Shown in pieces: positions 22,138 to 60,136 of a stretch of DNA of 64,000 bases. The notes below the pieces were generated by a model that did no database searches, was not told the DNA's origin, and saw only the letters and a program-made list of their open reading frames with translations. A program made the position numbers and the translations under genes. This stretch comes from a virus, in the IMG/VR virus record IMGVR_UViG_3300035682_000025, positions 8,042 to 72,041 of that record. One strand, 5' to 3'. The first letter of the stretch is position 1; each line of letters begins with the position of its first letter.

Positions 22138-22581
22138 TCATGGATGAAGCGAGAACTTTTTCAGAATAGTACTCGCAAATTTGTCATTTTCTTTGTTGGG
22201 CACAAATACATATGCGCAGGTATCCAGCGGAATGTGATGGACAACCTCGCCGTCAAGAATTGGATAGGTCGGATCATGAACCACATCAGCAATGTATTCC
22301 ATGCCCCGGAAAATGTCAACTGTTGCTTTGATGTCCGGCATTTTTCCAGCAAGAACAAGTACAGTGCCGAAGAATTGAGAAGTCGAGTTTTCCCATTCAG
22401 CAAAACCAGTCATGGTCGAGGTTTGCATCTCACTGTACATTGGCTTCGAGTTATACTCTTGAGCATAACCATGAAAATGTCCGACAAATGCGTTAGACGC
22501 GTGACTTGCCTGAGCCATTGCCTTTCCGGCATTAAGCGAGGCAAGGTCATTCCGAACGATGATATATAATACTGCTGTCAT
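22138..22581 (-). CDS. Peptidyl-tRNA hydrolase, PTH2 family-like
   Basis: N-terminal LYIIVRNDLASLNAGKAMAQASHAS resembles the PTH2 signature (hhVVRxDLxMxxGKxxAQxxHA). Confidence 0.5.
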   Translation of the reverse strand: MTAVLYIIVRNDLASLNAGKAMAQASHASNAFVGHFHGYAQEYNSKPMYSEMQTSTMTGFAEWENSTSQFFGTVLVLAGKMPDIKATVDIFRGMEYIADVVHDPTYPILDGEVVHHIPLDTCAYVFVPNKENDKFASTILKKFSLHP

Positions 22582-22603
22582 ATGGGTTCCCTTGTTTGAT
22601 TCG

Positions 22604-22912
22604 TCAGTGAAAAGTATATGTCAACATTGGAAGATTGTCAATCATATTTTCGGTGTGTTTTGTATGACCAGACTTTATGATATCAATGACATTAACATAG
22701 TTGTCAGTTGAATTTGTTTCTATAGCTATAGCTGATAGTTCAGCTGACATCTTCGGAAGTGCCTTTCCAAAAAATGTATGAATATCTGTTTCGGTGCCAA
22801 ATCTAATAGCTTTACATGAAAGTGCGATTGGGCTACTACTGAATAGGTGGTTGCCTAAATATATGCCCAGATAGATTCCTCGGTCTTCATGAAATGCAAT
22901 GTATGACTTCAT
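22604..22912 (-). CDS. Hypothetical protein
   Basis: 102 aa ORF. Confidence 0.4.
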   Translation of the reverse strand: MKSYIAFHEDRGIYLGIYLGNHLFSSSPIALSCKAIRFGTETDIHTFFGKALPKMSAELSAIAIETNSTDNYVNVIDIIKSGHTKHTENMIDNLPMLTYTFH

Positions 22913-23289
22913 TCTTTCCTTTCCTCCATCATATCGATTGAACGGAACACCAGAATCAAAATAGAGATGACGACAGTAGTAACAGTGATGCCCGCAAAAA
23001 GCACATACCCAAGCGTATAGAGATGCCAGACTCCAAGTAGTAGAAGAATTCGAATAATAATAAGCGTTCTAGCATCAGACCTTTCGGTAAATGCTTTGAG
23101 CTCTTCGATTCTCTTTTCTGGATTCTTAAGCAGAGTCTTCTGAAATCCTATAACAATTGCGATTGAGTATAGTACCAAAAATACATTAAGACAGAGAATG
23201 CCGATGATGATGTTGGTCGCCCAGAGGGCTCCACCCATAGACATATAGAGTGAACCAGCGATCACAGATGCTACGATTATATAAATCAT
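22909..23289 (-). CDS. Integral membrane protein (4 predicted TM helices)
   Basis: Start re-assigned to ATG 23289, which is ATGA-coupled to the upstream gene. Four long hydrophobic stretches. Confidence 0.5.
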   Translation of the reverse strand: MIYIIVASVIAGSLYMSMGGALWATNIIIGILCLNVFLVLYSIAIVIGFQKTLLKNPEKRIEELKAFTERSDARTLIIIRILLLLGVWHLYTLGYVLFAGITVTTVVISILILVFRSIDMMEERKE

Positions 23290-23852
23290 CCAATTTCCTT
23301 TGATTTGAACCATTCTGGAATTTCGCGATTGGTCCATGCCATCTTGAATCGTTCTTGTTTTGTTTGATAGAAGGCACGATAGGAACGAACTGGGTCGTTA
23401 TGAAACATGCATTCTGGGTTAGATTTCATGGCGAGTGCAAATGGCGTCATTGGACCATACTTGATGTTTTTTGGCATCAAGGATAGTTTTTCGCGCAAAA
23501 CTTTATCAGTCAGATGTACCTTGCCGTAGCGATGCGTATACTCGTCACACAGCGCGATGAAATGAGCGTAGTGCCAACCATAGTTCATTGCAGATGCCAT
23601 TGTCCAAGCCGTGCAGGGATGAGCGCTGTGGACGGCTTTATACAGAATATGATTCATATATGGATCAGGATGTAGCCATACTTTGACTTGCGATTTTCCC
23701 GACTTGGACGCTGCTTTGATAGAGTGTCCATCAAGGATGCGGTGTGCTGTTGAGAGCATTTGTGCGCTCTCAATTACCATTTTTGGAATGTGTTTATTGC
23801 ACTGCAGTTGTGCAGCCTTTACTGGCTCCAAATCAAGAATGAACAGATTCAT
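23286..23852 (-). CDS. Hypothetical protein (His/Trp-rich, 188 aa)
   Basis: Well-formed ORF, no confident family assignment. Confidence 0.5.
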   Translation of the reverse strand: MNLFILDLEPVKAAQLQCNKHIPKMVIESAQMLSTAHRILDGHSIKAASKSGKSQVKVWLHPDPYMNHILYKAVHSAHPCTAWTMASAMNYGWHYAHFIALCDEYTHRYGKVHLTDKVLREKLSLMPKNIKYGPMTPFALAMKSNPECMFHNDPVRSYRAFYQTKQERFKMAWTNREIPEWFKSKEIG

Positions 23853-24284
23853 TTAGTCAATCCGAGAACCAGCACTTGCATTGATGCCGTTCTCACGAAG
23901 AACCTTGGAGAAGGCACGAGCAAATGCTTCTTTCTTCTGCATAGACTGGTTGAATTCGCTCACCCAGCGCTGATAGTTCTTTTCATATTCGTTCTTACTG
24001 AACCCAGCAGCTTCAAGCACTTTGCGCTCTTCTTTGCCGAGTTTGGTGCTTCCCTTGAATTCAGGATAGACATTGATCCAAGCAAATCCACAAACCCCAT
24101 CGGCAACATACTCGGTGGGTTTGGAGTAGTCAATTTCGTTGGAGAACAAACCCTTCGCAGAGCCGACGACCATCGGAATAACCTTAGCCTTCGTCACAGC
24201 TTCATTGCCAGCAGCGTCTGCTTTGGTGATGATTTCTTTGAGAACGGAAAGAGTCGGAATCATAGTGTATCTCCTTTTGAACAC
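23853..24284 (-). CDS. Hypothetical protein
   Basis: 143 aa, abuts the downstream gene. Driven by promoter P3. Confidence 0.5.
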   Translation of the reverse strand: MFKRRYTMIPTLSVLKEIITKADAAGNEAVTKAKVIPMVVGSAKGLFSNEIDYSKPTEYVADGVCGFAWINVYPEFKGSTKLGKEERKVLEAAGFSKNEYEKNYQRWVSEFNQSMQKKEAFARAFSKVLRENGINASAGSRID

Positions 24285-24291
24285 TAGTGCA

Positions 24292-24603: not shown

Positions 24604-24632
24604 GTTATAGACCGATTCGACTCACTAGTCAA
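24604..24632 (-). promoter_or_regulatory. Conserved early promoter P4
   Basis: Reverse complement reads TTGACTagtgagtcgaatcggtcTATAAC. Confidence 0.55.
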
Positions 24633-25036
24633 GCCATAATAGTTTCCAGTTTGGAGATCATGCCCTTCAGTTCTTCAATCCGTTCTTTGGTTGCAATCCA
24701 GTCACCGCTGTAGCTCCAACCGGACTTCATTGTACCTTCGATTTCCTTAGCAATTTTGGCGCGAGCTTCCCGGTCATTATCCCGAGCCAGTTCTTCGCGA
24801 AGTTTGTCAGCGTTTCCAATGCTCGGACCCCACTCATTTTTGTAGGAGTCTCCACTTTTGTTGAAACGGTATTCCTTGGGACCACAGCTGTGGTCACCAC
24901 AGGTGACAAAGATATGACCATGACCGTTGATCTTGGTAACAGTACCAAATTCAGCAATGGAAAGCCCACCATAGCGGGTGCGCTTGACAACAGCAACTTC
25001 TTTACCGACATGGGCATCAAAGATTCCGAAAGACAT
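24629..25036 (-). CDS. Hypothetical protein
   Basis: 135 aa, RBS GGAGAA. Confidence 0.45.
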   Translation of the reverse strand: MSFGIFDAHVGKEVAVVKRTRYGGLSIAEFGTVTKINGHGHIFVTCGDHSCGPKEYRFNKSGDSYKNEWGPSIGNADKLREELARDNDREARAKIAKEIEGTMKSGWSYSGDWIATKERIEELKGMISKLETIMA

Positions 25037-27563: not shown

Positions 27564-27965
27564 TTATACTGCTACACTTGGACCACCAATTGATACTTTT
27601 TCGCTTCCAGTGAGTACCGTGTGATCAAATGTAGTTCCTTTGTTGAACTTACTTCCTACCCGGACAACCTTCTTGCCGCCTATCGATACACTACCAGCAC
27701 ACAATGATGCGGCTGGCGCATGATCTATAGCTTCTTCCGTACATGGAAGACCGTCTGGGTGCAAATCCATAGAGTCTCCTTCTACAGCAACTAGTTTTCC
27801 TTCCACATATACCTTTGTGTTGGTGGTTGCTCCCGTAACTTGTATCGATTCAACATCCCAATTCCACTTAGACGGTAATGAGCTGCATATAGCACCTCTA
27901 TTACCGTCAGTACATTCTATATCACTGAAACCATCAGCCCAAGCTATGCCATTAGACAAGTTCAA
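27564..27965 (-). CDS. PAAR-repeat-like protein (gp5.4-like spike-tip candidate)
   Basis: Three V.V.GK.V.RVG-type repeats with a PAAS motif (HAPAASLCAGSVSIGGKKVVRVG). Confidence 0.4.
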   Translation of the reverse strand: MNLSNGIAWADGFSDIECTDGNRGAICSSLPSKWNWDVESIQVTGATTNTKVYVEGKLVAVEGDSMDLHPDGLPCTEEAIDHAPAASLCAGSVSIGGKKVVRVGSKFNKGTTFDHTVLTGSEKVSIGGPSVAV

Positions 27966-29686: not shown

Positions 29687-29765
29687 ATAAATAGAAGTGT
29701 CAATCGCGGTAGTGCAAATACCCACTGACTCTAGAACTTGTCACCTAAAAGAAGGAGCTCCAGCA
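29687..29765 (+). promoter_or_regulatory. HEG-associated late promoter plus conserved leader (copy B)
   Basis: GATAAATAGAAGTGTCAATCGCGG...CTCTAGAACT...AAGGAGCTCCAGCAATG. Conserved with copies A and C. Confidence 0.6.
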
Positions 29766-30710
29766 ATGGATATTTATCCGATTCTAGCATCAAAGCCTCA
29801 TAGCGAACATCATCTCAATAGATATATCAGGTTTATTGAGCAATGTCAACAGAATAACAAAAAGTCTTCCATAAAAACACATAGGCATCATATTTGCCCA
29901 AGAGCAAAAGATATGTTTCCAGAATATGAGTCGTTCGCCAAGAACAAATGGAATATGGCACGACTGACGCCACGACAGCATTTCATCGCCCACATAATGT
30001 TGTGGAAAGTATATCCAAACATTTCTTCGCAGTTCAATGCTGTTTGGCAAATGAAACACAGAAATAACGAACAAATGAATTCGCGACTATATGAAAGCGT
30101 TCTATTAGAGCATAGCAGAGTAACCTCAGCTAGACTAAAAAATACGGTTTCTGTATATGATGCAAATGGTTTATTTCATCGTATTCCAGTAAGTGAATAT
30201 GACGAAAGTAAGCATACACCCATTTCTGCAAATAGAGTAGTAGCAAAAATGGATAGCGGTGATTATGTTGTGGTTTCTGTAGATGAGTTTCGTTCTAGAA
30301 CTGATTTACACGGAACAACAAAAAATACGAAAGCATGGAATGATGGAAATACTGTTATGTATTCTTACAAAAATCCTGGCCCTGGTTTTACGAGGGGTCA
30401 TTTACCCCTCTCGGATGAGCAGAAGAAAATTCGTAATGAAAAGACTCGACAGACTATATCAAAAAGAACATCAGAAGAAAATAAACTAATCAGTATAAAG
30501 AGCTCTCAAGCTAAAAGAGAGTATTATGCCAATCTCTCACCAGAAGAAAGAAAAAAGCCGCAAGAGTTCAAAGACAAGTTGTCGGAAATCAGGAAAGAAA
30601 GCAATCCGGGTTTCAGAGCAACTCACGCCTGCCCTACTTGCGGCAAAGAAGGTCAGAAAGCTAATATTTCAAAGCATCACGGTCTCAATGGCGAAAAGTG
30701 TAGATGGTAG
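29766..30710 (+). CDS. HNH homing endonuclease (free-standing, Mob-like)
   Basis: HHICPRA ... NMARLTPRQHFIAHIMLW HNH motif. Lys/Glu-rich C-terminal DNA-binding tail with CPTCG. Antisense to the surrounding operon. ATG 29766 with RBS AAGGAG. Confidence 0.8.
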   Translation: MDIYPILASKPHSEHHLNRYIRFIEQCQQNNKKSSIKTHRHHICPRAKDMFPEYESFAKNKWNMARLTPRQHFIAHIMLWKVYPNISSQFNAVWQMKHRNNEQMNSRLYESVLLEHSRVTSARLKNTVSVYDANGLFHRIPVSEYDESKHTPISANRVVAKMDSGDYVVVSVDEFRSRTDLHGTTKNTKAWNDGNTVMYSYKNPGPGFTRGHLPLSDEQKKIRNEKTRQTISKRTSEENKLISIKSSQAKREYYANLSPEERKKPQEFKDKLSEIRKESNPGFRATHACPTCGKEGQKANISKHHGLNGEKCRW

Positions 30711-33091: not shown

Positions 33092-34020
33092 TGTATCTCT
33101 TTCAGTAGGTTTGTCCACTTGTCAGCAAACATTGTTATATTATGTCTTGGACTACTATTTATGGTCTTGGATTTTCTAAGGTCATGCGATAGAACAGCTG
33201 ACATCACCTGATAAAACTTTTTGGCGTGCTCGTTTTGGTTTTCTGTATAGTCATACATAAATGTGTTCTGTCCAGCTGTTTCTGGAAGCGCAGCTAGGTT
33301 TGGATGGACAGTTAATACTTTATGCTCAATCGCCTCTATTAGAGCTATACATGAAGTCTCTTTCCATGTACAAGGATATGGAAAGTAATGAGCCCTTGAC
33401 AGATAGTCGCGAACAACGCTATTTGGTTGAGCTCCATGATATGTTACATTTGGATTTTTCCGCAACTGATCAAACACAGGTTTATATCCCTTGTCCCGCT
33501 CTCCCCATCCATAGACCCCAAATGACGAAAATACATCTAAGTGAAGTCGGTCTGGGTATTGTGGTTTTTTTGTGAGCTCATCAAATACGGAAGCGAGAAT
33601 GTGTAGACCTCTATGTGGAGTCGTATGATAGATCAGCCGTATCGTACCGTCAGTTTCTTTGTTGAGTTCCCCAGCAGGCTCAATCGCATTCTCTATGACG
33701 CGGCACATAGAATGTGGAATTCCAAACCGAGCAATGTATGCGTCTCTCTGCCAACATGTAACGAATACAAACATCCTAAACTGTTTCCATCCGCCATTTT
33801 CAAGAATTTTTGTCTCTGGATCTTCTGGTAAGTCGTGGGCGAAAAATATGTTGGGAACTCCGGCATATACTTGACGGACTCTTGCGAAGTGTATTGCAAC
33901 ATTTTTTAGCAGCGACGGATCTATATATTTCAGAAGTCGATCTCGCATTTGTTCTGTCCCGCCCATTGCTGAGCGAGACAGATTTGTATCAATGACTTCA
34001 CCTTTATAGATGACAGACAT
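33088..34020 (-). CDS. Glycosyltransferase-like protein (GT-B fold, GT1/GT4-like E-x7-E region)
   Basis: TWKETSCIALIEAIEHKVLTVHP resembles the EX7E motif of retaining GT4 enzymes. 310 aa. Confidence 0.4.
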   Translation of the reverse strand: MSVIYKGEVIDTNLSRSAMGGTEQMRDRLLKYIDPSLLKNVAIHFARVRQVYAGVPNIFFAHDLPEDPETKILENGGWKQFRMFVFVTCWQRDAYIARFGIPHSMCRVIENAIEPAGELNKETDGTIRLIYHTTPHRGLHILASVFDELTKKPQYPDRLHLDVFSSFGVYGWGERDKGYKPVFDQLRKNPNVTYHGAQPNSVVRDYLSRAHYFPYPCTWKETSCIALIEAIEHKVLTVHPNLAALPETAGQNTFMYDYTENQNEHAKKFYQVMSAVLSHDLRKSKTINSSPRHNITMFADKWTNLLKEIQ

Positions 34021-34283: not shown

Positions 34284-34293
34284 AATTTTTCCC

Positions 34294-34563: not shown

Positions 34564-34797
34564 TCAAGTTTTAGCTGGTTCAAGTTTTAGTAATTTTAGG
34601 TCCATCAGTATACGATAACTGATGTTCACAATGTCACCATCCGAATCAATCCGAAGCGTTGCTAACAGTTTGTCCAGAAAGACGAGTTCTTTGTTTTGTG
34701 CTTTAGCAATCTTCATGCAATCCATTACGCATTGAACGTCATATGGATTTTCAACGAAGATTTGCAACCTTTGAGTTGGCATTAGCTTCCTTTCCAA
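34564..34797 (-). CDS. Hypothetical protein
   Basis: 77 aa. Confidence 0.35.
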   Translation of the reverse strand: MERKLMPTQRLQIFVENPYDVQCVMDCMKIAKAQNKELVFLDKLLATLRIDSDGDIVNISYRILMDLKLLKLEPAKT

Positions 34798-35419
34798 GTA
34801 TTTTTCTTATCATTTGATGGAAGTCGCTAACAGATGTGTTGTTATAGATCCGATACATACGGATTGGTATCTGTGGCTCTGATTTTTGAATTGAGCTTTC
34901 GGAATCTTTGGTTCCTAGTTCTTCTATCAAAATGCCGTTTATGTAGTTCCGAGAATCAGAAGAAAACGAGCATCCGGTGCGATATATTTGAACGATGCAA
35001 ACTTTGTCATGTCCAACTCTATTTATTACAGGAGTAATTTCTTCTACGAAGCCGCCGTCACTGAAGCAATAGTTACGAGATGGGTCAACTTTCTCTGATG
35101 TTTTTACACCAAAATAGTCTTTACCATGCCGTGGTTTGATAATTTCTTCTGATACGAAGATCATAGCTTCTCTTCTAGAAAATCCATCGAGCCTATGTTC
35201 GCCTCGTTCTTTTATGATCCTATCGTTATAATTTTCCATAAACCAGTCTAAGGATACATCATAATACTGTGCAGTAGCACGAAATAGTTCTTGCTTGAAC
35301 TCTAGATGGGCGTAACCATAGTTTACTTTTAGGAAGTGGCACGCCTCATCCTTTCCAGAACCAGGCGGGCCATTGAAAATAAAGTTCAAGCTTCGATATC
35401 CGCGAATGCAGAATCCCAC
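34751..35419 (-). CDS. P-loop nucleotide kinase (T4 gp1 dNMP-kinase-like)
   Basis: IFNGPPGSGKDE P-loop with the SGKD signature seen in gp1-type dNMP kinases. 222 aa. Confidence 0.45.
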   Translation of the reverse strand: MGFCIRGYRSLNFIFNGPPGSGKDEACHFLKVNYGYAHLEFKQELFRATAQYYDVSLDWFMENYNDRIIKERGEHRLDGFSRREAMIFVSEEIIKPRHGKDYFGVKTSEKVDPSRNYCFSDGGFVEEITPVINRVGHDKVCIVQIYRTGCSFSSDSRNYINGILIEELGTKDSESSIQKSEPQIPIRMYRIYNNTSVSDFHQMIRKILGKEANANSKVANLR

Positions 35420-37201: not shown

Positions 37202-37690
37202 TCATGCCTTGAAATCCACCGGAACGCAGACACCAGATTTCCAAGAAGAATACTTCGCACCTGCAAGACTGGTTTCAGTTTCGCCCTCGTAGAGAATCTT
37301 GTCAAGCTTAACTCTCTTGCGGTCATCCAACCATCCAGCGAGAGCAATAGTTCCTACAGTGAGTATGATAAGACCAATCACACCTCCGGCGCCAAGAAGA
37401 AAGTCTGTCGTATGATATACCATGGCGTAACCCATAAGGTAGATCACAAATATGCTAAGGGAAGCCAGACCAATAAGGAATGCAGCCGTAACAGCGACCT
37501 TGAACATGCTCCACAGCGTCATTTGCCAATAGGAGCAAAGGTTGTCCCTGCTTTGAACAAATTTTTCTGCGTTATCGTTTCTGTTTAGGCGTTCGTTTGT
37601 TTTTACCATCCTGACATTCAGCTTGTAGTGCCAAGAGTTTTTGTTGACAGAAAAAGTTTTCATTTTAGACCCCATAAATTTCGGTTGCAA
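37202..37690 (-). CDS. Membrane protein (2-3 TM helices)
   Basis: Hydrophobic core VAVTAAFLIGLASLSIFVIYLMGYAMV and GAGGVIGLIILTVGTIALAGWL. Confidence 0.45.
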   Translation of the reverse strand: MQPKFMGSKMKTFSVNKNSWHYKLNVRMVKTNERLNRNDNAEKFVQSRDNLCSYWQMTLWSMFKVAVTAAFLIGLASLSIFVIYLMGYAMVYHTTDFLLGAGGVIGLIILTVGTIALAGWLDDRKRVKLDKILYEGETETSLAGAKYSSWKSGVCVPVDFKA

Positions 37691-38105
37691 TTTGTCCGGC
37701 GCGCTTCATGTCAGCAAGCGCACCAAAATGATCACGAAGCGCTTTCATGATATCACCCTTCTTTGGTACAGGACCCATTTTACTGCGCCCAGTCATGAAT
37801 GCGCTAAGAAATGCAGCAATTTCTTGATCAGAAGCCATCTGTGGAAGCACACTAACAAGAATTGATTTCTCGTCTTCCATATCTTTGCGCTGCCCGTCTC
37901 CAATGTGCAGTTTAAGAAGTTCGTCAATCGTAGCGACCAACTTTTGGACAACCTTGATTGCTTCGTCATCGGTAGTTGCGCGGTTGCCGTTGTTCTTACC
38001 GACCTTCTCAACCTCGCTAAGAGCGAAGACGATTTTAGAAGCAACAGGGTTTCGCTCTTTACGAAGCCGGAGCGACTCAGCTTTCAGTTTTTCAATAATA
38101 CTCAT
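37665..38105 (-). CDS. GatB/YqeY-domain protein
   Basis: MSIIEKLKAESLRLRKERN...VLPQMASDQEIAAFLSAFM...MGPVPKKGDIMKALRDHFGALADMKRAGQI matches the YqeY/GatB C-terminal domain. Start re-assigned to ATG 38105. Confidence 0.6.
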   Translation of the reverse strand: MSIIEKLKAESLRLRKERNPVASKIVFALSEVEKVGKNNGNRATTDDEAIKVVQKLVATIDELLKLHIGDGQRKDMEDEKSILVSVLPQMASDQEIAAFLSAFMTGRSKMGPVPKKGDIMKALRDHFGALADMKRAGQIATEIYGV

Positions 38106-38448: not shown

Positions 38449-38828
38449 TAACCTGCCACCTTATATGCTACGATATCCCATCGATTCATTGGGTCGCTTG
38501 CGCTACGATGTCTCCAAGTAATCTGTGGCCAGTGTTTAGCAGCGATAGGAGAACGAGGAATTCTGCCGCGCACTTTGACAGCAACAACAGTTTCGCCATC
38601 AACGGGACGGTCTCCGCCTTCCCATATAATGAAACCATCCCCATCAATTGCAACACTTTCAGAGCAAAGATTGCCAGATGGGTTCTTTGCTGGCTGATAA
38701 TCATTCTCTACAATTGTCAATGCGTTTCTGGCTCGTTCCCTGCACCAATGCCCGCCGCGTTCTTCGCCCCAGCTTGCAATTTCTTGTAAAGCATTCTGTA
38801 GTGATTCATGGGTTTTCATATCAATCAC
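38448..38828 (-). CDS. Hypothetical protein
   Basis: 126 aa. Confidence 0.4.
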   Translation of the reverse strand: MIDMKTHESLQNALQEIASWGEERGGHWCRERARNALTIVENDYQPAKNPSGNLCSESVAIDGDGFIIWEGGDRPVDGETVVAVKVRGRIPRSPIAAKHWPQITWRHRSASDPMNRWDIVAYKVAG

Positions 38829-39963
38829 CGCCTTTCAGCAAAAACGAGTTGGAAATTGTCTTGAAGCTGAAACTCGGGTCTTCATTGCACTTCCACACAA
38901 GACCTTCACGGATTTTGTGATTGATGCTCGGACCTTCTGCAAGAGCAAGACCTTCTTCAACACTGTTGGGTGCTTTCCAGTTAGAGCCGTGTAGTGGAAC
39001 ATGCTCAAGACCAAGCAACTGACAATTTACGCGACGGTCGCCCGGAGAGACATACTCGTGCTTCTGAATGTCGAACATATCGAAGACAAAGAAACGGTGT
39101 TCTTTGAACCCTTCACGGTTACCCTGAATCGACGGGCCGCACACTTCCCCCTGAAATGCATATCCATCTGGAATTTTATCACCAATCTTGAGAGCCATAG
39201 CAACAAAGGTATTGTCCTTGTTCTCGTCATTGATTTTCAGTTCAAGGTTCCGGCTTGCAACACGAAGTTCACCTTCCCATCGGAAGATAGTGCAGCTAGA
39301 ACCGTCCAGCTTCAGAGTGACTTCGTAGGTTGGCTCTTGGAAGTCAGCAGGAAGAACTACTGGCCGTTGATCAAGGCGTTGAAGCTCAGCATCCCAAACA
39401 GTTTCAGTTGCAAGTCGCTTGGCTTTCTTTTGAATATCGCCAAAGCAGTTTTGAATGCGCTCTTGATCGGTCTTCGGGATCAGCGATGTTGGGAAAGTAC
39501 CTTTTGCTTGACCTTGCAATTGCGCAGGAAGAGGTGCTTCCCACTTTTGAATGTTGAGGAATTCGGTCAGGTCAGTACCTTCTTTGATTTCAGGTCGCTC
39601 TGGTAGATTTACAGGAATGTCACCACCGTCACTGTTACACCAAATATTGATATAATCTTCTGCAACGCAAATTGGCAGCAAAAGCCCCTGAGAAACCTGC
39701 CCCCTAAGTTTGATTGTCCGCAGACGTTCACCCTTCACACCATTGTATTCGCGGGGTTCATTTCCTTTGCTCAAGAATGCTGCGAGTTCATGCGGAACCC
39801 AAGAGTCAATTTCGAGGTATACAGCAAGGTCGTTCACAGCGAATTCGCCGCGCTTTACGACGACCTTCCATCCGTCAATAGTAGCCACTTCGACGGCATC
39901 AGCACCTTCGATGGGTCGAATGTCGGCAATGCGCCGAATAGAAGCAAGTTTACGCTCAGTCAT
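38821..39963 (-). CDS. ATP-dependent RNA ligase-like nucleotidyltransferase with N-terminal putative tRNA-binding OB-fold domain
   Basis: Motif I KLDGSS (Rnl1-like KxDGS), motif IV-like EGLVWK, C-terminal K-rich motif V. The N-terminal 60 aa (IRRIADIRPIEGADAVEVATIDGWKVVV) resemble the Trbp111/EMAP-type tRNA-binding domain. Confidence 0.55.
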   Translation of the reverse strand: MTERKLASIRRIADIRPIEGADAVEVATIDGWKVVVKRGEFAVNDLAVYLEIDSWVPHELAAFLSKGNEPREYNGVKGERLRTIKLRGQVSQGLLLPICVAEDYINIWCNSDGGDIPVNLPERPEIKEGTDLTEFLNIQKWEAPLPAQLQGQAKGTFPTSLIPKTDQERIQNCFGDIQKKAKRLATETVWDAELQRLDQRPVVLPADFQEPTYEVTLKLDGSSCTIFRWEGELRVASRNLELKINDENKDNTFVAMALKIGDKIPDGYAFQGEVCGPSIQGNREGFKEHRFFVFDMFDIQKHEYVSPGDRRVNCQLLGLEHVPLHGSNWKAPNSVEEGLALAEGPSINHKIREGLVWKCNEDPSFSFKTISNSFLLKGGD

Positions 39964-42249: not shown

Positions 42250-43371
42250 CTATGCCTCCAACCAGTTCATCATTGCTTCATACTTCGGACCGTTACCGAC
42301 GGAATCCTTGATCTTCTTGATAACGAGAGGGCGAAGTTCCTTGCCATCAAGAGCCGAGAAGATGAAAGAAGCATCTTCCTTGTTGATCAGATTCGGGACG
42401 AAGTTGATAGCAACATCCTTCTTCACTCCACCATGCAGGACACGAGCAAGAGTAACCAACCCCTCCAGCCGCCCAAGAGCGTTCTCCAGCGCAGCGTCAA
42501 AGCGGCGTTCATAAGCACGAACGGTTGCCAGGTCAGTCGCATCAAGCAACGGGAGAACATCATCCAGCTGCTCGTTGATGATAATGTCAGCGATGTTTCG
42601 GTCAGAGCGAACCAAGTCTTTGGTTTTATGAATACGGACATACCAGTCGTTCTTGATCTTCAACATGTGGCCATCAGCGAACCGAATGATATCACCTTCA
42701 CGGCCAGACATCTCGCGAGCACGAGCAATGTATTCCGACAGACCACCCTCTACAGAACCATACTGCTGAACAACCTCGAAAGGAGCCGAGTGTGGCATAT
42801 AGTAGTTGCCAGTGAAGTTGTTGCGCATGGCCAGAAGAACGAGCTTCGGCTCAGCATACTCAATCACGATTTTGTTGGTCGGAGCAATATATTCAAAGAT
42901 AGGAGTTACATCGGAAAGCACCAGCTGCTCAAGCCACTCGTATTGTTCAGCAGTAAGCAGTTTTTCAGCTTCAATAGCGATGTCAGTCACGCCCATCTTG
43001 GTTGCAAGACGAACCATTCCGTTCAGGCAAATCGGCCGGATCATCGACCCATCCATCTTTTCCATGATGACATGGGGCTTGGTCATATCAATTGCATGAA
43101 TTTGCGTTTCTTCTTTTTCAAGGGCATTGAAAAATTTGTGGAAGGGGCGCGACATGATATAGCCCTCAAGGTCAAAGATCAAGCCGCGGCATTCACGCCG
43201 AATAGCACCACCAAGGTCATCCGGGCCAGTCATATCAAAGGTATCAGCCATCGCAACAACATAGTTGATAACAGTACCAAACTCGCGCTCAGCAACAATA
43301 AATTCGGAGCGACCTTCAATGTGAGGAAGCACATCGTTGATGGTGCGGATTTCAGGGAATTGATAGTTCAT
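42250..43371 (-). CDS. rnlA: RNA ligase 1 (T4 RnlA homolog)
   Basis: ECRGLIFD, motif I EKMDGSM, FEYIAPTNKIV, EGDIIRFADGHMLKIKNDWYVRIH all match T4 Rnl1. 373 aa. Confidence 0.85.
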   Translation of the reverse strand: MNYQFPEIRTINDVLPHIEGRSEFIVAEREFGTVINYVVAMADTFDMTGPDDLGGAIRRECRGLIFDLEGYIMSRPFHKFFNALEKEETQIHAIDMTKPHVIMEKMDGSMIRPICLNGMVRLATKMGVTDIAIEAEKLLTAEQYEWLEQLVLSDVTPIFEYIAPTNKIVIEYAEPKLVLLAMRNNFTGNYYMPHSAPFEVVQQYGSVEGGLSEYIARAREMSGREGDIIRFADGHMLKIKNDWYVRIHKTKDLVRSDRNIADIIINEQLDDVLPLLDATDLATVRAYERRFDAALENALGRLEGLVTLARVLHGGVKKDVAINFVPNLINKEDASFIFSALDGKELRPLVIKKIKDSVGNGPKYEAMMNWLEA

Positions 43372-48020: not shown

Positions 48021-48102
48021 AACTTTCTTCCTTTCATAATTTTTATATTCGTTCATATCGTTTTGATAATCGAGACTATTTCTATAGTTGGTTCGATCTG
48101 GT

Positions 48103-48288
48103 TTACGCATCTTCATCATCCTCTAGGTCAACAACCTTTGTGATTTCATTTCCGTTTTCGTCTTTTGTCTTGACATAGCGGTACCTACCAGTAGTTCGCT
48201 TGAATGTCAAGTTTTTCATAATCACAAAAGCACCAACTCCAATGAGTGCTGCAATGATGATAATTCCGACAAGTGATAGTGGCATCAT
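48103..48288 (-). CDS. Small single-TM membrane protein (possible SPFH partner)
   Basis: 61 aa, N-terminal TM helix and acidic C-terminus, immediately upstream of the SPFH gene. Confidence 0.45.
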   Translation of the reverse strand: MMPLSLVGIIIIAALIGVGAFVIMKNLTFKRTTGRYRYVKTKDENGNEITKVVDLEDDEDA

Positions 48289-53476: not shown

Positions 53477-53715
53477 GATTTCAATTCATCGCAATCATAA
53501 AATTCTTCAACTTCTTTTTGGTAGAAGATATATGTTTTATCTATCCATTCCAGCCATAGAGGAATACCTAAGAAATGCACCCGATTCTGAGCATAATCAT
53601 ATTTGCAGTAGTTCCACCTTGTGTTATCAATAATGGTTTTTGTCTTGCATTTTCCGGTGAGATGCAGACGCTTGATTGACCCATACCGTGACTCGTATGC
53701 AATCATATCAGACAT
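53473..53715 (-). CDS. Hypothetical protein
   Basis: 80 aa. Confidence 0.4.
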   Translation of the reverse strand: MSDMIAYESRYGSIKRLHLTGKCKTKTIIDNTRWNYCKYDYAQNRVHFLGIPLWLEWIDKTYIFYQKEVEEFYDCDELKS

Positions 53716-54823
53716 CGCGTTTTCCTTTCCAGAATGCTACAGCAACAGGAAAGCGGAGCTTCCCGTCAGAGGTTTTATTTTGATATCGGACGGTCACTTG
53801 GGTTCCCACCAATGAGTCGCGTTCTTCGAGCAGTCGTTTTGCAAACTCTTGACTGCCGCGCATACCCGACTGCTGAACTTCTCCATCTGGTAGACGGATG
53901 GTAACGCTTTTTGCATAACCCTGCCAGTTGCCAAGACCCTCGACCACTTCTACGATTTCAAATTCATCATCTTCAAAAGTCTTATGCTTGAGCAGTGACT
54001 TTGAGCGTTTATGCTCATAGGGTGCATTCCGGTCACGAAGCATCTGCCCCTCATATCCACTCTCTAGATACTCGCCAAGTTTCGTGTCAATTTCATCAGC
54101 AGAGTGAACAAGAACAGCAGGAACAGCAACGACCATAGGGAACCGCCCAGCGATGTTGACTTGAATGAACTTGAAGCGTTCTGCATAGGTCAAGTCTTCG
54201 CCGGGAATAATGACATCATAGACATGGTATTCAATCATCTTAGCAGACTCATAAATGTCTTCTGATGTCGGCTTTGTCTTACGAGCCAATGAAATTAGTT
54301 TTTCAAAATCATCTTTCAGCTCATGATTATAGAGTTCGCCATCAACAACCGCATCAGGGAATTCGTCAAATAGCGGCTGTAGAGCAGCTCTAATATGCGG
54401 GGATGATAGTAGTGGCTTTCCATTACGAGACTGTAGACCCGCTTCTGATGTGATACAGCGCACTCCATCCAACTTTGGTTGCGACCAATAGGGGAATGCT
54501 TTATTCTTCTTTGCATCATAAGCTGCTGCAAGCATACATTCAACGAACTTTGCGCCCTTACGAGCCTCTTCAATCGTATCAGCGTATTTGCCTTGATATG
54601 TTTGATGCTCATATTTGGATTTGACTTCCGATAGCACCTGTTCGGTGACGGAAGTAGCATTTACTTTGCCGACATTTTTCTCTGTCGGATATTGCCAACC
54701 AGATACGACAATCTTTCCGGTTTCTAACCCAGAATGAGTTCTATAGGCTTCGTCATTTGATTCAATCCACCAAGTTCGAACTCGGCCGGTGCTATCAATT
54801 TTATATAGTGTAGGATGGTTCAT
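53708..54823 (-). CDS. ATP-dependent DNA ligase
   Basis: Motif I QPKLDGVRC, motif III/IV region, EGQMLR, LLKHK motif V/VI. 371 aa, similar in size to T7-type phage ligases. Confidence 0.85.
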   Translation of the reverse strand: MNHPTLYKIDSTGRVRTWWIESNDEAYRTHSGLETGKIVVSGWQYPTEKNVGKVNATSVTEQVLSEVKSKYEHQTYQGKYADTIEEARKGAKFVECMLAAAYDAKKNKAFPYWSQPKLDGVRCITSEAGLQSRNGKPLLSSPHIRAALQPLFDEFPDAVVDGELYNHELKDDFEKLISLARKTKPTSEDIYESAKMIEYHVYDVIIPGEDLTYAERFKFIQVNIAGRFPMVVAVPAVLVHSADEIDTKLGEYLESGYEGQMLRDRNAPYEHKRSKSLLKHKTFEDDEFEIVEVVEGLGNWQGYAKSVTIRLPDGEVQQSGMRGSQEFAKRLLEERDSLVGTQVTVRYQNKTSDGKLRFPVAVAFWKGKRDV

Positions 54824-56483: not shown

Positions 56484-56598
56484 ATAACGGTGTACTCAGC
56501 CTTACGCACTTCCACCCAATCGTCTTTGTGTTCGGCCTCATAATATACTTTTGTGTCCGGTGGGAATTGTTGCAATAAAGCGATAAGGTGCTCAACTT

Positions 56599-56784
56599 TC
56601 ATTCTGCGATCTTTTTCATATATGAATTGATTATTTCCATTGATAATTTATAAGATTGAACTGCAACTCGCAACTCGAACTCGCTTTCTGTAATATCAGA
56701 TGTATTTACTGCTAAAAAGAAATCGCGGTAATCCGAATGATTTGAGATTTCACTGTTATCGTAGCCTTCAACTAATTGTTTCAT
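56599..56784 (-). CDS. Hypothetical protein
   Basis: 61 aa. An additional coupled sub-60-aa ORF lies at about 56458-56602. Confidence 0.35.
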   Translation of the reverse strand: MKQLVEGYDNSEISNHSDYRDFFLAVNTSDITESEFELRVAVQSYKLSMEIINSYMKKIAE

Positions 56785-56999
56785 TCTACACAGCTTCCAC
56801 TTACATATTGTTTACCAGATTCGACGCAGGCATTGAATTGTCGTTCTGTTTTAGCCATATCACTACTAATAAGCTTTCCGATTCCTAAAACAATAAGGAT
56901 AACGACGATGAAGAATAAGATAGCATCTAGATGCCAGCGGAGAATATCAGATAGAGAGTTCATGCTTTGGTTTCCATAATTTTGCGAATTTGAGTACAT
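56781..56999 (-). CDS. Small membrane protein
   Basis: 72 aa with a central hydrophobic helix. Confidence 0.35.
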   Translation of the reverse strand: MYSNSQNYGNQSMNSLSDILRWHLDAILFFIVVILIVLGIGKLISSDMAKTERQFNACVESGKQYVSGSCVE

Positions 57000-57300
57000 T
57001 CGGGGTTTCTAGTCTAGGACAGACGACAGCACAGGCTTTTCGTCCTTCAAGTGTAGTATTTTCGTGCCCAAGATAAACATCAGGTAGTGCTGCAATCTTG
57101 TCAAACTCTTTCTGGTTCACTCGCACCACACACTTGCGAAATGAGTCTTTAAGCCATGTCATATATTCTGGGTAGAACGGTAGACCGTATGATGGCCCTA
57201 CATATGTAAACTCTAAGTGAGCTCCTAACATGCTGTGTGCCACAAGAGTCGGTGTCATATAGTCAGGGAATTCGTCAAGTACTGCTATGTATAGTTTCAT
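56947..57300 (-). CDS. Hypothetical protein (weak PTH2-like N-terminal pattern)
   Basis: 117 aa. KLYIAVLDEF...TLVAHSMLGAH loosely resembles the PTH2 signature. Confidence 0.4.
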   Translation of the reverse strand: MKLYIAVLDEFPDYMTPTLVAHSMLGAHLEFTYVGPSYGLPFYPEYMTWLKDSFRKCVVRVNQKEFDKIAALPDVYLGHENTTLEGRKACAVVCPRLETPNVLKFAKLWKPKHELSI

Positions 57301-57467
57301 TGGTGTTTCTTTCCGCAGATGGGGCAGCTTCCTTGCTCGACAAAACTAACAGTCGTGAAGTTTGATGAGGTTCCACTGTAGTAACCTCTATCCCAAGAAA
57401 GGGTCTTGTCGTATAGTGCAGCGCAGCCGCTGCATCTAATAAGATTTGAAGCATTGGCAATGTTCAT
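57297..57467 (-). CDS. Small zinc-ribbon protein (56 aa), not in track
   Basis: MNIANASNLIRCSGC...CPICGKKHQ. ATGA-coupled at both ends. It replaces the overlapping track ORF 57275..57460 in another frame. Confidence 0.4.
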   Translation of the reverse strand: MNIANASNLIRCSGCAALYDKTLSWDRGYYSGTSSNFTTVSFVEQGSCPICGKKHQ

Positions 57468-57709
57468 TTTTCCAAATACTTTTCGCCATTGTTTTTCTGA
57501 TATTCTTTGAGTCCAATATTTAGCATACGCTCAATATGCACCAAATCACAGTTTAGCGCCGGATCATGCAATTCAACTAGGTTGTAGCCATGTCTATGAT
57601 TGCACCTACCATAATATAATACATGAAACTCATTATTAGCACCATGAGGTCTAATTGTGTATTTCATTTCACATGTACAGTTGTTGAATATATCTAAGTC
57701 ACTCATCAA
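57464..57709 (-). CDS. Hypothetical protein
   Basis: 81 aa. Confidence 0.4.
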   Translation of the reverse strand: MMSDLDIFNNCTCEMKYTIRPHGANNEFHVLYYGRCNHRHGYNLVELHDPALNCDLVHIERMLNIGLKEYQKNNGEKYLEK

Positions 57710-58299
57710 ATCATTCCAATACTTTGAAAAAGTTGCTTATCAATCGCCCATCTGTTTTCGCGATAGTTCTTCGCTTCCAGAGCAAGGTCTTCGATATTGA
57801 CCGGCGTGTAGTTTCGCATTTCTACACAGACAGAAGTGTATGGACCGATCTTCGGAGAACCCATTGTGTGGCTGTGGCCATGGACCTGAAATAGAGGGCA
57901 TTCAATACTTGTGCCCCGAAACAGCGCCATTAGATTCAATGGAACATGATGAAAAATAAGACCATGTTCAGTGAACATACGCCAGAACAGAGTTTTCTTG
58001 AAGAATGCTCCGTTTGCGAGAAATTGAATATCGTCATGGTTGCCGACAATTAGTCGCTTTGAACCATTGAACTTTGGCCAATCTCTCTTGAATGTTTCCT
58101 TGTCACCAAAGAATGTATCACCCAAAGTATAGACGATATCGCCAGGCTTCACAACAGAATTCCATCGATCAAGCAAGCACTCGTTCATTTGCTCTACAGT
58201 ATCAAAATCGCGAGTTCGGTTGCCTTGATAGTCAATAAAGCTCAGGATGTTGGCATGATTGTAGTGTAGGTCTGAAATGACCCAAATATCTTTAGCCAT
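57706..58299 (-). CDS. Calcineurin-like metallophosphoesterase (Ser/Thr phosphatase / diadenosine tetraphosphatase family)
   Basis: ISDLHYNH, GDxxxG, GNHD, HGHSH motifs. Confidence 0.75.
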   Translation of the reverse strand: MAKDIWVISDLHYNHANILSFIDYQGNRTRDFDTVEQMNECLLDRWNSVVKPGDIVYTLGDTFFGDKETFKRDWPKFNGSKRLIVGNHDDIQFLANGAFFKKTLFWRMFTEHGLIFHHVPLNLMALFRGTSIECPLFQVHGHSHTMGSPKIGPYTSVCVEMRNYTPVNIEDLALEAKNYRENRWAIDKQLFQSIGMI

Positions 58300-58316
58300 T
58301 TTAAATTTTCCTTATA

Positions 58317-58634
58317 TTAGGCTGCAGCCTTGACGAATTCTCGCAAGAGTTGGCCAGAATAGATGCCGATGCGGCTCTTGCCTGACTTATCTTTGACGCG
58401 CCAGTAGTTGATTTGTTTCGGCGAAAGATAACCAGCCTTCTGGTAGAACTTCGCCATTGAGGTTCCCATTTTTGCATGGCATGGACGGAAGCCTCGACCG
58501 TTTTTGTATTTAGTATCTTCGCTGTCGAGCTCATCAGCTGTCTGCAACTCAGCAAGACGAAGAAGCGCACGACCAACAGCCTTGTCGTTGGTCTCGAGCA
58601 GAGTTGCGATTTTTTCTTTGGTCCATTCAGTCAT
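58317..58634 (-). CDS. Hypothetical protein
   Basis: 105 aa. Preferred over the overlapping 58301..58576 frame. Confidence 0.4.
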   Translation of the reverse strand: MTEWTKEKIATLLETNDKAVGRALLRLAELQTADELDSEDTKYKNGRGFRPCHAKMGTSMAKFYQKAGYLSPKQINYWRVKDKSGKSRIGIYSGQLLREFVKAAA

Positions 58635-58905
58635 TGAAGATCACCACTTTCAGATTGGTCATACCGGGAGTAACAGAAACGAAGTTGATTGAGATTAGGT
58701 CCCCCTCGTTATCAAGAGTATCTTCCATTTGCACAAACACAACACAATTTCCAGTTTTTTCAGAAATGATTGTGAACCCCATGTCATCAGCATCATCATA
58801 GATGCGACCAAGTTTCAAATCTTTCAGTTCCGAAGCTTCAGCGGAAAACACGCCATTCTTGAATGCAAACTTGGAAGAACTAATCGGCGCAGGTTTCAGA
58901 AGCAT
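58627..58905 (-). CDS. Hypothetical protein
   Basis: 92 aa, after promoter P20. Confidence 0.4.
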   Translation of the reverse strand: MLLKPAPISSSKFAFKNGVFSAEASELKDLKLGRIYDDADDMGFTIISEKTGNCVVFVQMEDTLDNEGDLISINFVSVTPGMTNLKVVIFND

Positions 58906-58932
58906 GTTTCCCTCTTTTCTGACTACTCTTAG

Positions 58933-58961
58933 ACACTACACCGATTCGATATGTTTGTCAA
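58933..58961 (-). promoter_or_regulatory. Conserved early promoter P20
   Basis: Reverse complement reads TTGACAaacatatcgaatcggtgTAGTGT. Confidence 0.6.
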
Positions 58962-60136
58962 TACATTTTTTCAATGACCATAACTTTTTTTACGGTTGTC
59001 TCGCTGATGGCCATAGTCACAATATCAGATAGCAGAAATCCGACCTTGTACCTTTTTCCGCTGTAGCATTGTTTTGGGTCTGTGTGAACATAGATGTGCG
59101 GTGATACTGGTTCTTGAACCCAGTCGCCGATAGAGTATCGAATTTTCTTGCTATGAATGCAGTTTTCTAGCGTACCATCGGGCATTTCTTTGAATGATTT
59201 GTATCCGTATATCATCATATCGTCTGGCGCAATTTCGAACGGCTCTTTCTTGAGAATCTCTCGTAGACGAATTGCATTTGCCCCATCGGGCCTAATGCGA
59301 CCATCAGCCATCACAATTGCGTATCTGTCATTACTGCCGCCACAAACACTAAAACTAAACAACTTGTTGTTCTCGGGCATCTTGTAAGCATAGACCTTTT
59401 CTGTCGTGAATGCCAATTCAAAGTCGTCAGCGGTGAAATTACTATAGTCTGTAGAAGCGTCTGGAAACAGCAAGTCAACATTCAGGTCATCAAACAAGTC
59501 GATTGCAGCCTGAATAGAAAACTCTTTTCCTTCGGTATGAAGTTTTACCTGATGACCATAGGTTCCACCGATAACAGCTTCAAGCTCATCCCAACTAGTC
59601 GGAAGCGCGCTTTGCATGAGTGTTAGTGACATGCGAACCATTTCAGAAGTTGGAAGCGTGTACCCCTTCGCACGATACTTAGACAATCGCATCATGCTGT
59701 TGAGCGGATAGCGAGTCTTCGGGTTGAAACGAATGGTCTTTCCTGCGACATCCAGCCAGAAGTCTTTATGGAAATGATATTCTTTTGTATCACAATCGAA
59801 TGCAGCCATACATACAGTGAAGTCAAAGAATTCAAAGATTCGATCAGCTGTCGCGAATTCGTCAAACATCATGACCTGAACAATAACTCGCTCGTCTTTG
59901 TCATTTTTGATATCGTTTGATTTTAGCGTGATAGCACGGTCAGAGATGTTGACAATGAAGCAACCTTCTTCTTCCATCAAATAGTAGATGGTTTCGATTG
60001 CTGCTTCTGTTGATTTCGGATAAATGTCATAGTCAGAGATTTCGCTCTTTGTAACAGCAGAGAGGATTGCTCCACCAGCAACAAAACACTTGTCTAGACT
60101 ACCAAATGGGTGCGGGCGAATAGGAAGACGATTCAT
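58958..60136 (-). CDS. Pol-beta-superfamily nucleotidyltransferase, class II CCA-adding/poly(A) polymerase head-domain-like
   Basis: FVAGGAILSAVTKSEISDYDIY (GG-x11-DxD) and downstream FFDFTVCMAAFD (compare RRDFT[IV]NA motif B). 392 aa. Confidence 0.45.
   Translation of the reverse strand: MNRLPIRPHPFGSLDKCFVAGGAILSAVTKSEISDYDIYPKSTEAAIETIYYLMEEEGCFIVNISDRAITLKSNDIKNDKDERVIVQVMMFDEFATADRIFEFFDFTVCMAAFDCDTKEYHFHKDFWLDVAGKTIRFNPKTRYPLNSMMRLSKYRAKGYTLPTSEMVRMSLTLMQSALPTSWDELEAVIGGTYGHQVKLHTEGKEFSIQAAIDLFDDLNVDLLFPDASTDYSNFTADDFELAFTTEKVYAYKMPENNKLFSFSVCGGSNDRYAIVMADGRIRPDGANAIRLREILKKEPFEIAPDDMMIYGYKSFKEMPDGTLENCIHSKKIRYSIGDWVQEPVSPHIYVHTDPKQCYSGKRYKVGFLLSDIVTMAISETTVKKVMVIEKMY

Follow-up and report, generated by a model that had tools for sequence, protein, structure and literature searches.

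Do the genes for RNA ligases and other nucleic-acid end-processing enzymes scattered through the early region of one phage make up a single system protecting tRNA, or are they separate acquisitions with separate jobs? The question is raised by a 64,000-nucleotide stretch of the IMG/VR virus record IMGVR_UViG_3300035682_000025 (positions 8,042 to 72,041), the whole of which we call the window. A preliminary description flagged two RNA ligases, a 2H phosphoesterase, two candidate peptidyl-tRNA hydrolases of the Pth2 type, a nucleotidyltransferase resembling CCA-adding enzymes, and several phosphatases and P-loop proteins. It read them as one broadened tRNA-repair counter-defence: the 2H enzyme would open 2',3'-cyclic phosphates instead of a Pnkp phosphatase, the nucleotidyltransferase would rebuild tRNA 3' ends, an oligonucleotide/oligosaccharide-binding (OB) domain on one ligase would bind tRNA, and Pth2 would recycle tRNA. 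All the open reading frames (ORFs) it named are there, on the minus strand, but they are dispersed over 38 kb amid unrelated genes and form no operon. We put a probability of about 70% on a different reading: the flagged genes, scattered among some 100, each belong to a known family independently of the others, and they fall into three functional groups. The first would carry out T4-type repair of RNA and tRNA breaks. The second would be anti-defence. The third would be ordinary T4-like DNA and nucleotide metabolism, comprising the DNA ligase, Dda helicase, RNase H, dCMP deaminase, deoxynucleoside monophosphate (dNMP) kinase, two NT5C nucleotidases and PhoH. The comparisons below show directly which families the proteins belong to, what folds they have and which catalytic residues are conserved; it is from these that we infer all enzymatic activities and biological targets.

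Judged by its genes, the window is from an uncultured T4-like myovirus. Up to about 16.3 kb the plus strand is occupied by a structural module of the T4 type, with genes for terminase, sheath, tube and portal. A query with segment 4558-11850 matched the corresponding genes of T4-like cyanomyoviruses at about 65-68% nucleotide identity. The early, non-structural arm lies on the minus strand between about 16.3 and 62.2 kb, a block of some 100 genes, most of them small. A tRNA scan of the window found zero tRNA genes. Megablast of 38-44 kb against GenBank phages gave no match, and no close relative was found among those phages; the similarity to T4-like structural genes is distant. Metagenome contigs from several samples are 99.8-100% identical to parts of the window. 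Among cultured phages, many of the proteins have their closest relatives in phages of Alphaproteobacteria: Sinorhizobium phages phiM12 and phiN3, Caulobacter phages Cr30 and CcrSC, and Ruegeria phages DSS3P8 and RpAliso. Jumbo status is not established from the 64 kb of this genome that were seen.

The argument for RNA repair begins with the gene described as a T4 RnlA homolog, and here the identification holds. The protein matches Pfam RNA_lig_T4_1 (PF09511; 4.4e-22, 79.5 bits against a cut-off of 28.3), the T4 gp63 family phrog_562 (7e-70, spanning residues 56-368 of 373) and the T4 Rnl1 structure 2c5u (5.6e-24). Its motif I, K105-MDG, aligns to T4 K99-EDG in that structure, so the ligase active-site motif is intact. 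Such an enzyme would close breaks in tRNA anticodon loops. It could be argued instead that the gene is kept mainly for the non-enzymatic attachment of tail fibres, as T4 gp63 does, rather than for tRNA repair: this is a T4-like myovirus, and phrog_562, the best PHROG, bears the name "RNA ligase and tail fiber protein attachment catalyst" and the category "tail". We find this highly improbable given the intact active site. Moreover, the closest Rnl1 homologs lie directly beside, and operon-linked to, homologs of a polynucleotide kinase (PNK)-like kinase of this phage population in six phage genomes (RpAliso, DSS3P8, vB_RpoS-V10, Cr30, and Synechococcus phages B23 and B3), an arrangement explicable only by RNA end-joining. 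Two of the six, DSS3P8 and vB_RpoS-V10, are presumably siphoviruses. In Cr30, the gene of a second RNA ligase lies 2.7 kb from that of Rnl1. A 367-residue neighbour in phage S-CREM1 was considered as an Rnl1 and rejected. Adjoining Rnl1 in the window is a 260-residue plus-strand ORF (43605-44387) with no Pfam or PHROG match. Gene callers place small minus-strand genes there in identical metagenome contigs, and the plus-strand ORF is probably not a gene.

The second ligase was described as a KxDGS-type enzyme fused to a tRNA-binding domain of the Trbp111/EMAP kind, a fusion not seen described before for phage ligases. There is indeed a KxDG ligase with an N-terminal OB domain, but the domain is not of the tRNA-binding type: the tRNA_bind profile (PF01588) had no match in this protein at E <= 0.01, and residues 6-98 belong to PF21189, the PHA02142 OB-fold (8.7e-30). 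The nucleotidyltransferase domain (PF09414) covers residues 212-368 of 380, with K218 as the KxDG lysine. The protein aligns over its full length to the Naegleria gruberi RNA ligase NgrRnl (5cot; 1.4e-62), and scores 163.8 bits with the DraRnl equivalog model TIGR02306, above the cut-off of 151.15. It keeps the counterparts of all NgrRnl active-site residues, namely R4, D53, K140, R169, K218, D220, E273, E353 and K368; in NgrRnl these are R4, D53, K121, R149, K170, D172, E227, E312 and K326 (PMC7261155). By sequence, then, this is an Rnl5 ligase of the NgrRnl/DraRnl type. The supposedly new fusion is the published, defining architecture of Rnl5, an OB domain followed by a nucleotidyltransferase domain (PMC7261155, PMC4408790). 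Phage members have been listed though not characterised (PMC4408790), and we find full-length homologs in 332 phage records. What has been shown for the OB domain of NgrRnl is contact with the ATP gamma-phosphate and promotion of lysine adenylylation, not tRNA binding (PMC7261155, PMC4408790). Rnl5 enzymes join 3'-OH/5'-PO4 nicks in duplexes with RNA as the 3'-OH strand. In T4 it is Rnl2 that fills the duplex-nick-sealing role beside Rnl1, and the phage Rnl5 would do the same job in duplex RNA here.

Where, then, is the end-healing? Searches of the window by tblastn with PNK kinase, HAD-type Pnkp phosphatase and RlaP queries gave nothing credible, and no fusion of a P-loop polynucleotide kinase to a DxDxT phosphatase, as in T4 Pnkp, was found this way. 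The two phosphatases of the haloacid dehalogenase (HAD)/NT5C type, the metallophosphoesterase and the P-loop proteins of the preliminary description are all present, but none of them is a polynucleotide kinase, and the HAD enzymes and the kinase are of deoxynucleotide-metabolism types (Table 1). The shorter HAD protein matches the HAD "polynucleotide kinase" phrog_415 at 1e-4 only. An HNH homing-endonuclease-like ORF (29697-30710, plus strand; phrog_655, 1.2e-24) lies between the two NT5C-type genes and is the only convincing plus-strand gene within the minus-strand block.

The answer probably lies just past the end of the window. Metagenome contig L002 is 99.8% identical to window positions 56494-64000 and runs about 6.1 kb further, and in this flank it carries a stand-alone PNK-like kinase with a metallophosphoesterase one small gene away. 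The kinase matches the kinase half of the "polynucleotide kinase" phrog_505 (1.4e-9), and the PNK-3'Pase and PSTK models weakly. PDB sequence searches with the kinase and with its neighbouring metallophosphoesterase gave no match. The same flank has a NADAR-domain gene and a ClpP-like protease. The metallophosphoesterase inside the window is 49% identical (E 9e-58) to gp389 of Sinorhizobium phage phiN3, where the order is PNK-like kinase, one gene, gp389; in other phages its homologs adjoin Gad2 or Pth2-like genes. The metallophosphoesterase of the L002 flank was also considered as a gp389 homolog and rejected, since BLASTP finds no homology between them. To judge from these sequences, end-healing probably comes from a split system: the stand-alone 5'-kinase would act with a metallophosphoesterase, either the one in the window or the copy beside the kinase. 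The idea that a 2H enzyme has replaced the kinase-phosphatase therefore falls: the same phage population encodes both a PNK-like kinase and another metallophosphoesterase shortly past the window end, and the 2H enzyme need not replace Pnkp. It is important to realize that the end-healing kinase of a phage can be a stand-alone PNK-like protein accompanied by a metallophosphoesterase, so the lack of a T4-type Pnkp is not a lack of healing.

Two further proteins may belong to this first group. For the 147-residue Pth2-like protein, sequence profiles give a mixed picture: PF01981 clears its cut-off of 23 with 25.4 bits, but over residues 4-46 only (43 residues), phrog_1866 matches at 1.8e-19, and the NCBIfam Pth2 equivalog reaches 17 bits against a cut-off of 126. 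The fold is clear. An AlphaFold model (pLDDT 91.8) searched against the PDB with Foldseek had Pth2 structures as all of its top 8 matches (probability 1.00, target-normalised TM-score 0.66-0.79), which confirms the fold that had been proposed, and the profile of the family retrieves Pth2 structures exclusively (E 0.004-0.9). There are at least 715 homologs, mostly of about 147 residues and mostly with PF01981. K20 and D103 are invariant in 36 homologs and align to the G-K and D-x-G-Y-T positions of Ta0108 and Bit1; in Sulfolobus Pth2, K18 and D86 are the residues reported essential. Hydrolase activity is plausible on this model, and the protein would probably remove peptidyl or N-acyl groups from tRNA. 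PTH2 has been noted in jumbo phages (PMC7824862). The weaker second Pth2 candidate does not survive. This 117-residue protein has no Pfam or NCBIfam match, its one PHROG has no assigned function, and its hhalign probability with the Pth2-like profile is 0.85%. On the other hand, the preliminary description did not list the YqeY-like gene three genes after Rnl5, whose call we took from metagenome contig L007. Its product may be a helper that aids tRNA binding.

The 2H enzyme is the first of two proteins that we move from RNA repair to anti-defence. It had been described as a 2H phosphoesterase with two HxTx motifs, and two HxT/S motifs are there (H59-T-T and H129-I-S), but its family is not the RNA type. 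PF23474 (Acb1) matches at 7.6e-13, its 48.9 bits clearing the cut-off of 27, and the alignment takes in positions 4-139 of the 144 in the profile. Acb1 is also the precomputed Pfam label on the identical metagenome protein. The RNA-ligase-type 2H model PF13563 reaches only 17 bits against its cut-off of 27, and the LigT_PEase search of this protein had no match. The sole 2H enzymes among its PDB matches are Acb1 structures (9q2g and 7t26, E about 0.006-0.008). Acb1 enzymes degrade the cyclic-oligonucleotide signals of the cyclic-oligonucleotide-based antiphage signalling system (CBASS). We put the likelihood that the phage protein acts against CBASS signals at roughly two-thirds, going by its family, and their destruction is its most likely role. 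Immediately upstream and overlapping the end of PhoH is a 133-residue ORF (27564-27965, minus strand) whose PAAR-motif match is borderline (26.8 bits; cut-off 27), an odd site for a spike-tip-like protein.

The second is the 392-residue nucleotidyltransferase. Calling its head that of a class II CCA-adding enzyme was right as to motifs and fold; the function in CCA addition is another matter. The class II motif A (GGxVRD...DxD) is conserved in the Pol-beta head, and the solved structures nearest in fold are those of A-, CC- and CCA-adding enzymes, with viral tRNA nucleotidyltransferases among the matches in BFVD. These folds are a point in favor of the single tRNA-repair system. However, motif B (RRDLTINA) aligns to FFDFTVCM, where the RR is absent, and motif D (EDxxR; GEDPLR) aligns to TRYPLN, so that EDxxR has become R-Y-P-L-N. 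Without these the nucleotide-selecting template is absent. The body and tail with which CCA enzymes hold tRNA are missing too, a beta-rich C-terminal half taking their place. The hhalign comparison with E. coli Cca is weak in score (E 0.33) but keeps a consistent register, which rests on the fold match, and a Pfam scan found no match, PF01743 (PolyA_pol) included. We reject a CCA-adding enzyme on the missing template, body, tail and PF01743 match. RlaP was rejected as well: RlaP is PF10127, which was found in none of the ORFs scanned in the window, and tblastn with the RlaP of locus L013 gave nothing credible.

What the protein does resemble is Gad2. Over its first 210 residues it shares 35% identity (E 5e-32) with Gad2 of Bacillus phage SPbetaL7. 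PF26128:Gad2 is also the label on the identical metagenome protein, and 119 of the 120 homologs listed bear it. SPbetaL7 needs Gad2 to escape Gabija, and a homolog is sufficient to block Gabija (bioRxiv 10.1101/2023.05.01.538930). As to mechanism, the same work gives only a predicted nucleotidyltransferase domain, and our literature search found no later mechanistic work on Gad2. Going by the family, the phage protein most likely counters Gabija through some nucleotidyl-transfer reaction. A bolder idea, which we hold tentatively and consider rather doubtful, is that the Gad2 family is a class II CCA/poly(A)-polymerase-type enzyme stripped of its CTP/ATP template and tRNA-holding domains, which modifies a nucleic-acid 3' end (RNA, tRNA or nicked DNA) within end repair rather than binding Gabija. 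If true, this would link an anti-defence protein with the proposed RNA-repair toolkit.

The neighborhoods of these genes in other phages bear on all of this. For Gad2 homologs we examined 65 loci and for Pth2-like homologs 80, calling ORFs ourselves and searching them with iterated profiles. Pth2-like genes lie 146-441 bp from a PNK-like kinase (L120, L121), 271 bp from RlaP (L151), 5 bp from YqeY (L126, L127), 71-318 bp from a metallophosphoesterase (five loci) and 1.8-5 kb from Rnl1 (six loci). Gad2 homologs are near RNA ligases, YqeY or RlaP in L012, L013, L024, L040 and L076, with YqeY near Gad2 in L013 and L024, and a metallophosphoesterase overlaps or adjoins Gad2 in T4-like relatives and in L014. 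The neighborhoods give partial support to a common RNA/tRNA-end theme for Rnl1, the kinase, the metallophosphoesterases, Pth2 and YqeY, with Gad2 at its edge. In L013 and L014, which are large phage contigs with distant Gad2 homologs, the adjoining genes have to do with NAD and ADP-ribose (NAMPT, Macro, cREC_REC and an NMN transporter), which hints at anti-defence islands mixing NAD salvage and nucleic-acid repair.

Such linkages in distant phages are what the reading of one broadened tRNA-repair counter-defence has in its favor, together with the CCA-like folds and the fact that the concept was already proposed for jumbo phages (PMC7824862). We nevertheless consider it unlikely. The 2H enzyme is an Acb1 member that falls under the cut-off of the RNA-type model, nothing has been replaced, the nucleotidyltransferase is of the Gad2 family and lacks what a CCA enzyme needs, the OB domain is the adenylylation module of Rnl5, the kinase and HAD enzymes in the window are of dNMP-kinase and deoxynucleotidase types, and the genes are scattered. 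What stands of the preliminary description is the capacity for RNA repair (Rnl1 and a nick-sealing ligase), the Pth2 fold and the CCA-like catalytic half, and to these we add that subsets of the genes are linked in distant phages; the novelty of the ligase fusion, the replacement by the 2H enzyme, CCA maturation and the second PTH2 do not stand.

The neighborhoods also suggest a repair module of another kind. GajA of Gabija is a DNA-nicking endonuclease. Gad2, the metallophosphoesterase and the ATP-dependent DNA ligase, perhaps with Dda, could clean, extend and seal ends in a manner analogous to LigD, repairing or capping GajA nicks. The window order is Dda, Gad2, two small genes and the metallophosphoesterase, with the DNA ligase 4.1 kb further on, and related T4-like contigs have the recurring order Dda, metallophosphoesterase, Gad2, DNA ligase. 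A KxDG DNA-ligase-like ORF lies within 1.5 kb of Gad2 in 19 of the 65 loci, in at least four arrangements, and SPbetaL7 itself has a 270-residue ligase-like ORF (L001:1031-1843, minus strand) 1.1 kb from the validated gad2. The Pth2-anchored control has a ligase in 7 of 80 loci, which differs from Gad2 at first sight (Fisher p = 0.002). After dereplication at 70% identity, however, 10 of 45 Gad2 clusters and 6 of 43 Pth2 clusters have a ligase nearby, which are indistinguishable. The statistical signal is gone, and we do not claim the linkage between Gad2 and DNA ligase as anything beyond a weak lead. Besides, the ligase is an ordinary T4-like replication ligase, the closest folds of the nucleotidyltransferase act on RNA 3' ends and not on DNA, and a Brevibacillus Gad2 homolog alone blocked Gabija in a heterologous host (bioRxiv 10.1101/2023.05.01.538930). 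A LigD-like module is very unlikely in our opinion, and we return to three groups of independent genes.

Several points weigh against that division as well. Every function is assigned by homology. The PNK-like kinase lies outside the window, seen in a 99.8%-identical contig and not in the window itself. Rnl1 scores 146.2 bits with the equivalog model TIGR02308, under its cut-off of 242.25, so we treat it as a divergent family member and not an equivalog. Its match to the Rnl1 C-terminal domain PF20819 is weak (16.7 bits against a cut-off of 27), although the phrog_562 alignment does run on to residue 368; this Rnl1-specific domain is the one responsible for the tRNA specificity of the T4 enzyme. 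The Acb1-family enzyme has diverged: a tblastn search turned up 14 phage records only, none annotated as Acb1. Among these homologs, some carry the name RNA ligase or RNA 2',3'-cyclic phosphodiesterase and others have no annotation, and the enzyme may have a role at RNA ends. The alignment to validated Gad2 is confined to the N-terminal, nucleotidyltransferase half. Elsewhere, Gad2 homologs sit among ligases, metallophosphoesterases, YqeY and RlaP, and a clean split between RNA repair and anti-Gabija may be artificial.

Table 1. Features of the window and of the adjoining flank of contig L002 (coordinates are window positions unless marked L002).
Feature	Coordinates	Strand	Evidence
Pth2-fold protein, 147 aa, divergent phage subfamily with extra helical insert	22138..22581	-	PF01981, phrog_1866, structure model
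Acb1-family (anti-CBASS) 2H phosphoesterase, 165 aa	27065..27562	-	PF23474; motifs H59-T-T, H129-I-S
PhoH-like P-loop ATPase, 245 aa	27952..28689	-	PF02562 6e-48
HAD/NT5C-type 5'-nucleotidase, 195 aa	29082..29669	-	PF06941 3e-7; phrog_420 1.6e-29
HAD/NT5C-type 5'(3')-deoxyribonucleotidase, 156 aa	30740..31210	-	PF06941 5e-8; phrog_2643 "5'-3' deoxyribonucleotidase" 7.4e-46
P-loop dNMP kinase, 222 aa, T4 gp1-like, not a polynucleotide kinase	34751..35419	-	phrog_139 1.6e-32; AAA_17 weak
YqeY/GatB-tail-like helical protein, 146 aa, three genes after Rnl5	37665..38105	-	PF09424 1.5e-6; phrog_1460 "tRNA amidotransferase" 6.9e-22
Rnl5-family RNA ligase, 380 aa, N-terminal OB and C-terminal nucleotidyltransferase domains	38821..39963	-	PF21189, PF09414, 5cot, TIGR02306
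Rnl1-family ATP-dependent RNA ligase, 373 aa, divergent T4 gp63/RnlA homolog	42250..43371	-	PF09511, phrog_562, 2c5u, K105-MDG
ATP-dependent DNA ligase, 371 aa, T4 gp30-like in role	53708..54823	-	PF01068 1.5e-16, PF14743 5.6e-7, K117-LDG
117-aa protein, formerly the second PTH2 candidate	56947..57300	-	phrog_5822 (function unknown) 1.6e-47
Calcineurin-type metallophosphoesterase, 197 aa, two small genes after Gad2	57706..58299	-	PF00149 22 bits (cut-off 21.5); phrog_547 5e-39
Gad2-family nucleotidyltransferase, 392 aa; class II CCA/poly(A)-polymerase-like head and neck (aa ~15-220), beta-rich C-terminal domain	58958..60136	-	
Dda-like superfamily 1 (SF1) helicase, 370 aa, immediately upstream of Gad2	60161..61273	-	AAA_30 1.9e-24, UvrD_C_2, PIF1
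Metallophosphoesterase, 230 aa, one small gene from the L002 kinase	L002:2901-3593, ~2.5 kb beyond window position 64000	-	
Stand-alone PNK-like AAA_33 kinase, 163 aa	L002:2138-2629, ~3.5 kb beyond window position 64000	-	phrog_505 1.4e-9

The rest of the early arm adds little to the argument. Four more minus-strand genes have recognizable products that are not known in RNA repair: a GapR-like DNA-binding protein (21563-21952; 5.8e-28), a phage ProQ C-terminal-like protein (24629-25036), a WYL_2 Sm-like protein (34020-34403) and an SPFH/Band 7 protein (47157-48119; 1.3e-30). A 458-residue protein (19394-20770, minus strand) has as its sole match phrog_20046, of unknown function (3.8e-60), in four separate stretches, which suggests that it is internally repeated. 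When 44 small ORFs of roughly 60-105 residues were scanned together, only a glutaredoxin was found; a marginal YabA match (E 7.6e-4) was disregarded.

If we are correct, one uncultured T4-like phage combines at least three counter-defence strategies from known families: repair of RNA breaks, destruction of CBASS signals and inhibition of Gabija. There is also a practical lesson: before 2H and Pol-beta enzymes in the early regions of phages are called RNA-repair enzymes, they should be compared with the Acb1 and Gad2 models. The one lead of wider interest is the CCA-enzyme-like fold of the Gad2 family together with its repair-gene neighborhoods, which could guide work on how Gad2 acts.

How does this phage compare with what is known? 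The individual proteins are each close to a described family and differ in detail. The phage Rnl5 has the same architecture as DraRnl of Deinococcus and NgrRnl of Naegleria, an N-terminal OB domain and a C-terminal nucleotidyltransferase domain with no C-terminal appendage, but it is encoded by a phage and carries an insert of 20 residues (~99-119) where the OB domain joins the linker. The 2H enzyme shares two HxT/S motifs and a near-complete PF23474 match with Acb1 of T4 (gp57B) and Erwinia phage FBB1 (7t26), although its pairwise matches to the solved structures, at E about 0.006-0.008 only, mark it as divergent. The nucleotidyltransferase and SPbetaL7 Gad2 are of similar length (392 and 400 residues), of the same family, and alike in the nucleotidyltransferase half, but the C-terminal half does not align and the phage lineage and probable host differ. 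Set against the class II CCA-adding enzymes and bacterial poly(A) polymerase, it is missing the motif B RR, EDxxR, the body and tail, and the PF01743 match. The Pth2-fold protein shares with archaeal and eukaryotic Pth2, including Bit1, the fold, the N-terminal R-x-D-L...G-K...A-Q...H-A motif and the Asp in the D-x-x-Y-x strand; it differs by a helical insert of about 30 residues and by D-P-T-Y-P in place of the canonical D-x-G-x-T.

At the level of pathways, the closest comparison is with the tRNA repair of T4, where Rnl1 (gp63) and Pnkp, with Rnl2, counter PrrC. Both phages have an Rnl1-family KxDG ligase and a second, nick-sealing ligase, which in the present phage lie in the early region. 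Here, however, Rnl5 takes the place of Rnl2 as second ligase, a bifunctional Pnkp is lacking, a PNK-like protein of 163 residues encoded outside the window stands alone as the kinase, and 3'-end healing would probably fall to a metallophosphoesterase and not to a HAD domain. Clostridium thermocellum Pnkp has a kinase-plus-metallophosphatase arrangement, and the split healing that we propose would resemble this more than the kinase-HAD fusion of T4. In our opinion the repertoire is well stocked but ordinary, each component being a new member of a known family with no new system among them. The phage repertoire of ligases, PNK, HAD, 2H, nucleotidyltransferases and PTH2 was already published by Iyer, Anantharaman, Krishnan, Burroughs and Aravind in 2021 (PMC7824862). 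They have the same cast of Rnl1/Rnl2-type ligases, PNK, phosphoesterases, 2H enzymes, Pol-beta nucleotidyltransferases and PTH2, and the same reading of it as directed against anti-tRNA nucleases. What sets the present case apart from theirs is that the phage is T4-like, that its genes are dispersed, and that its Pol-beta enzyme is Gad2 and not RlaP (PF10127) or a true CCA enzyme.

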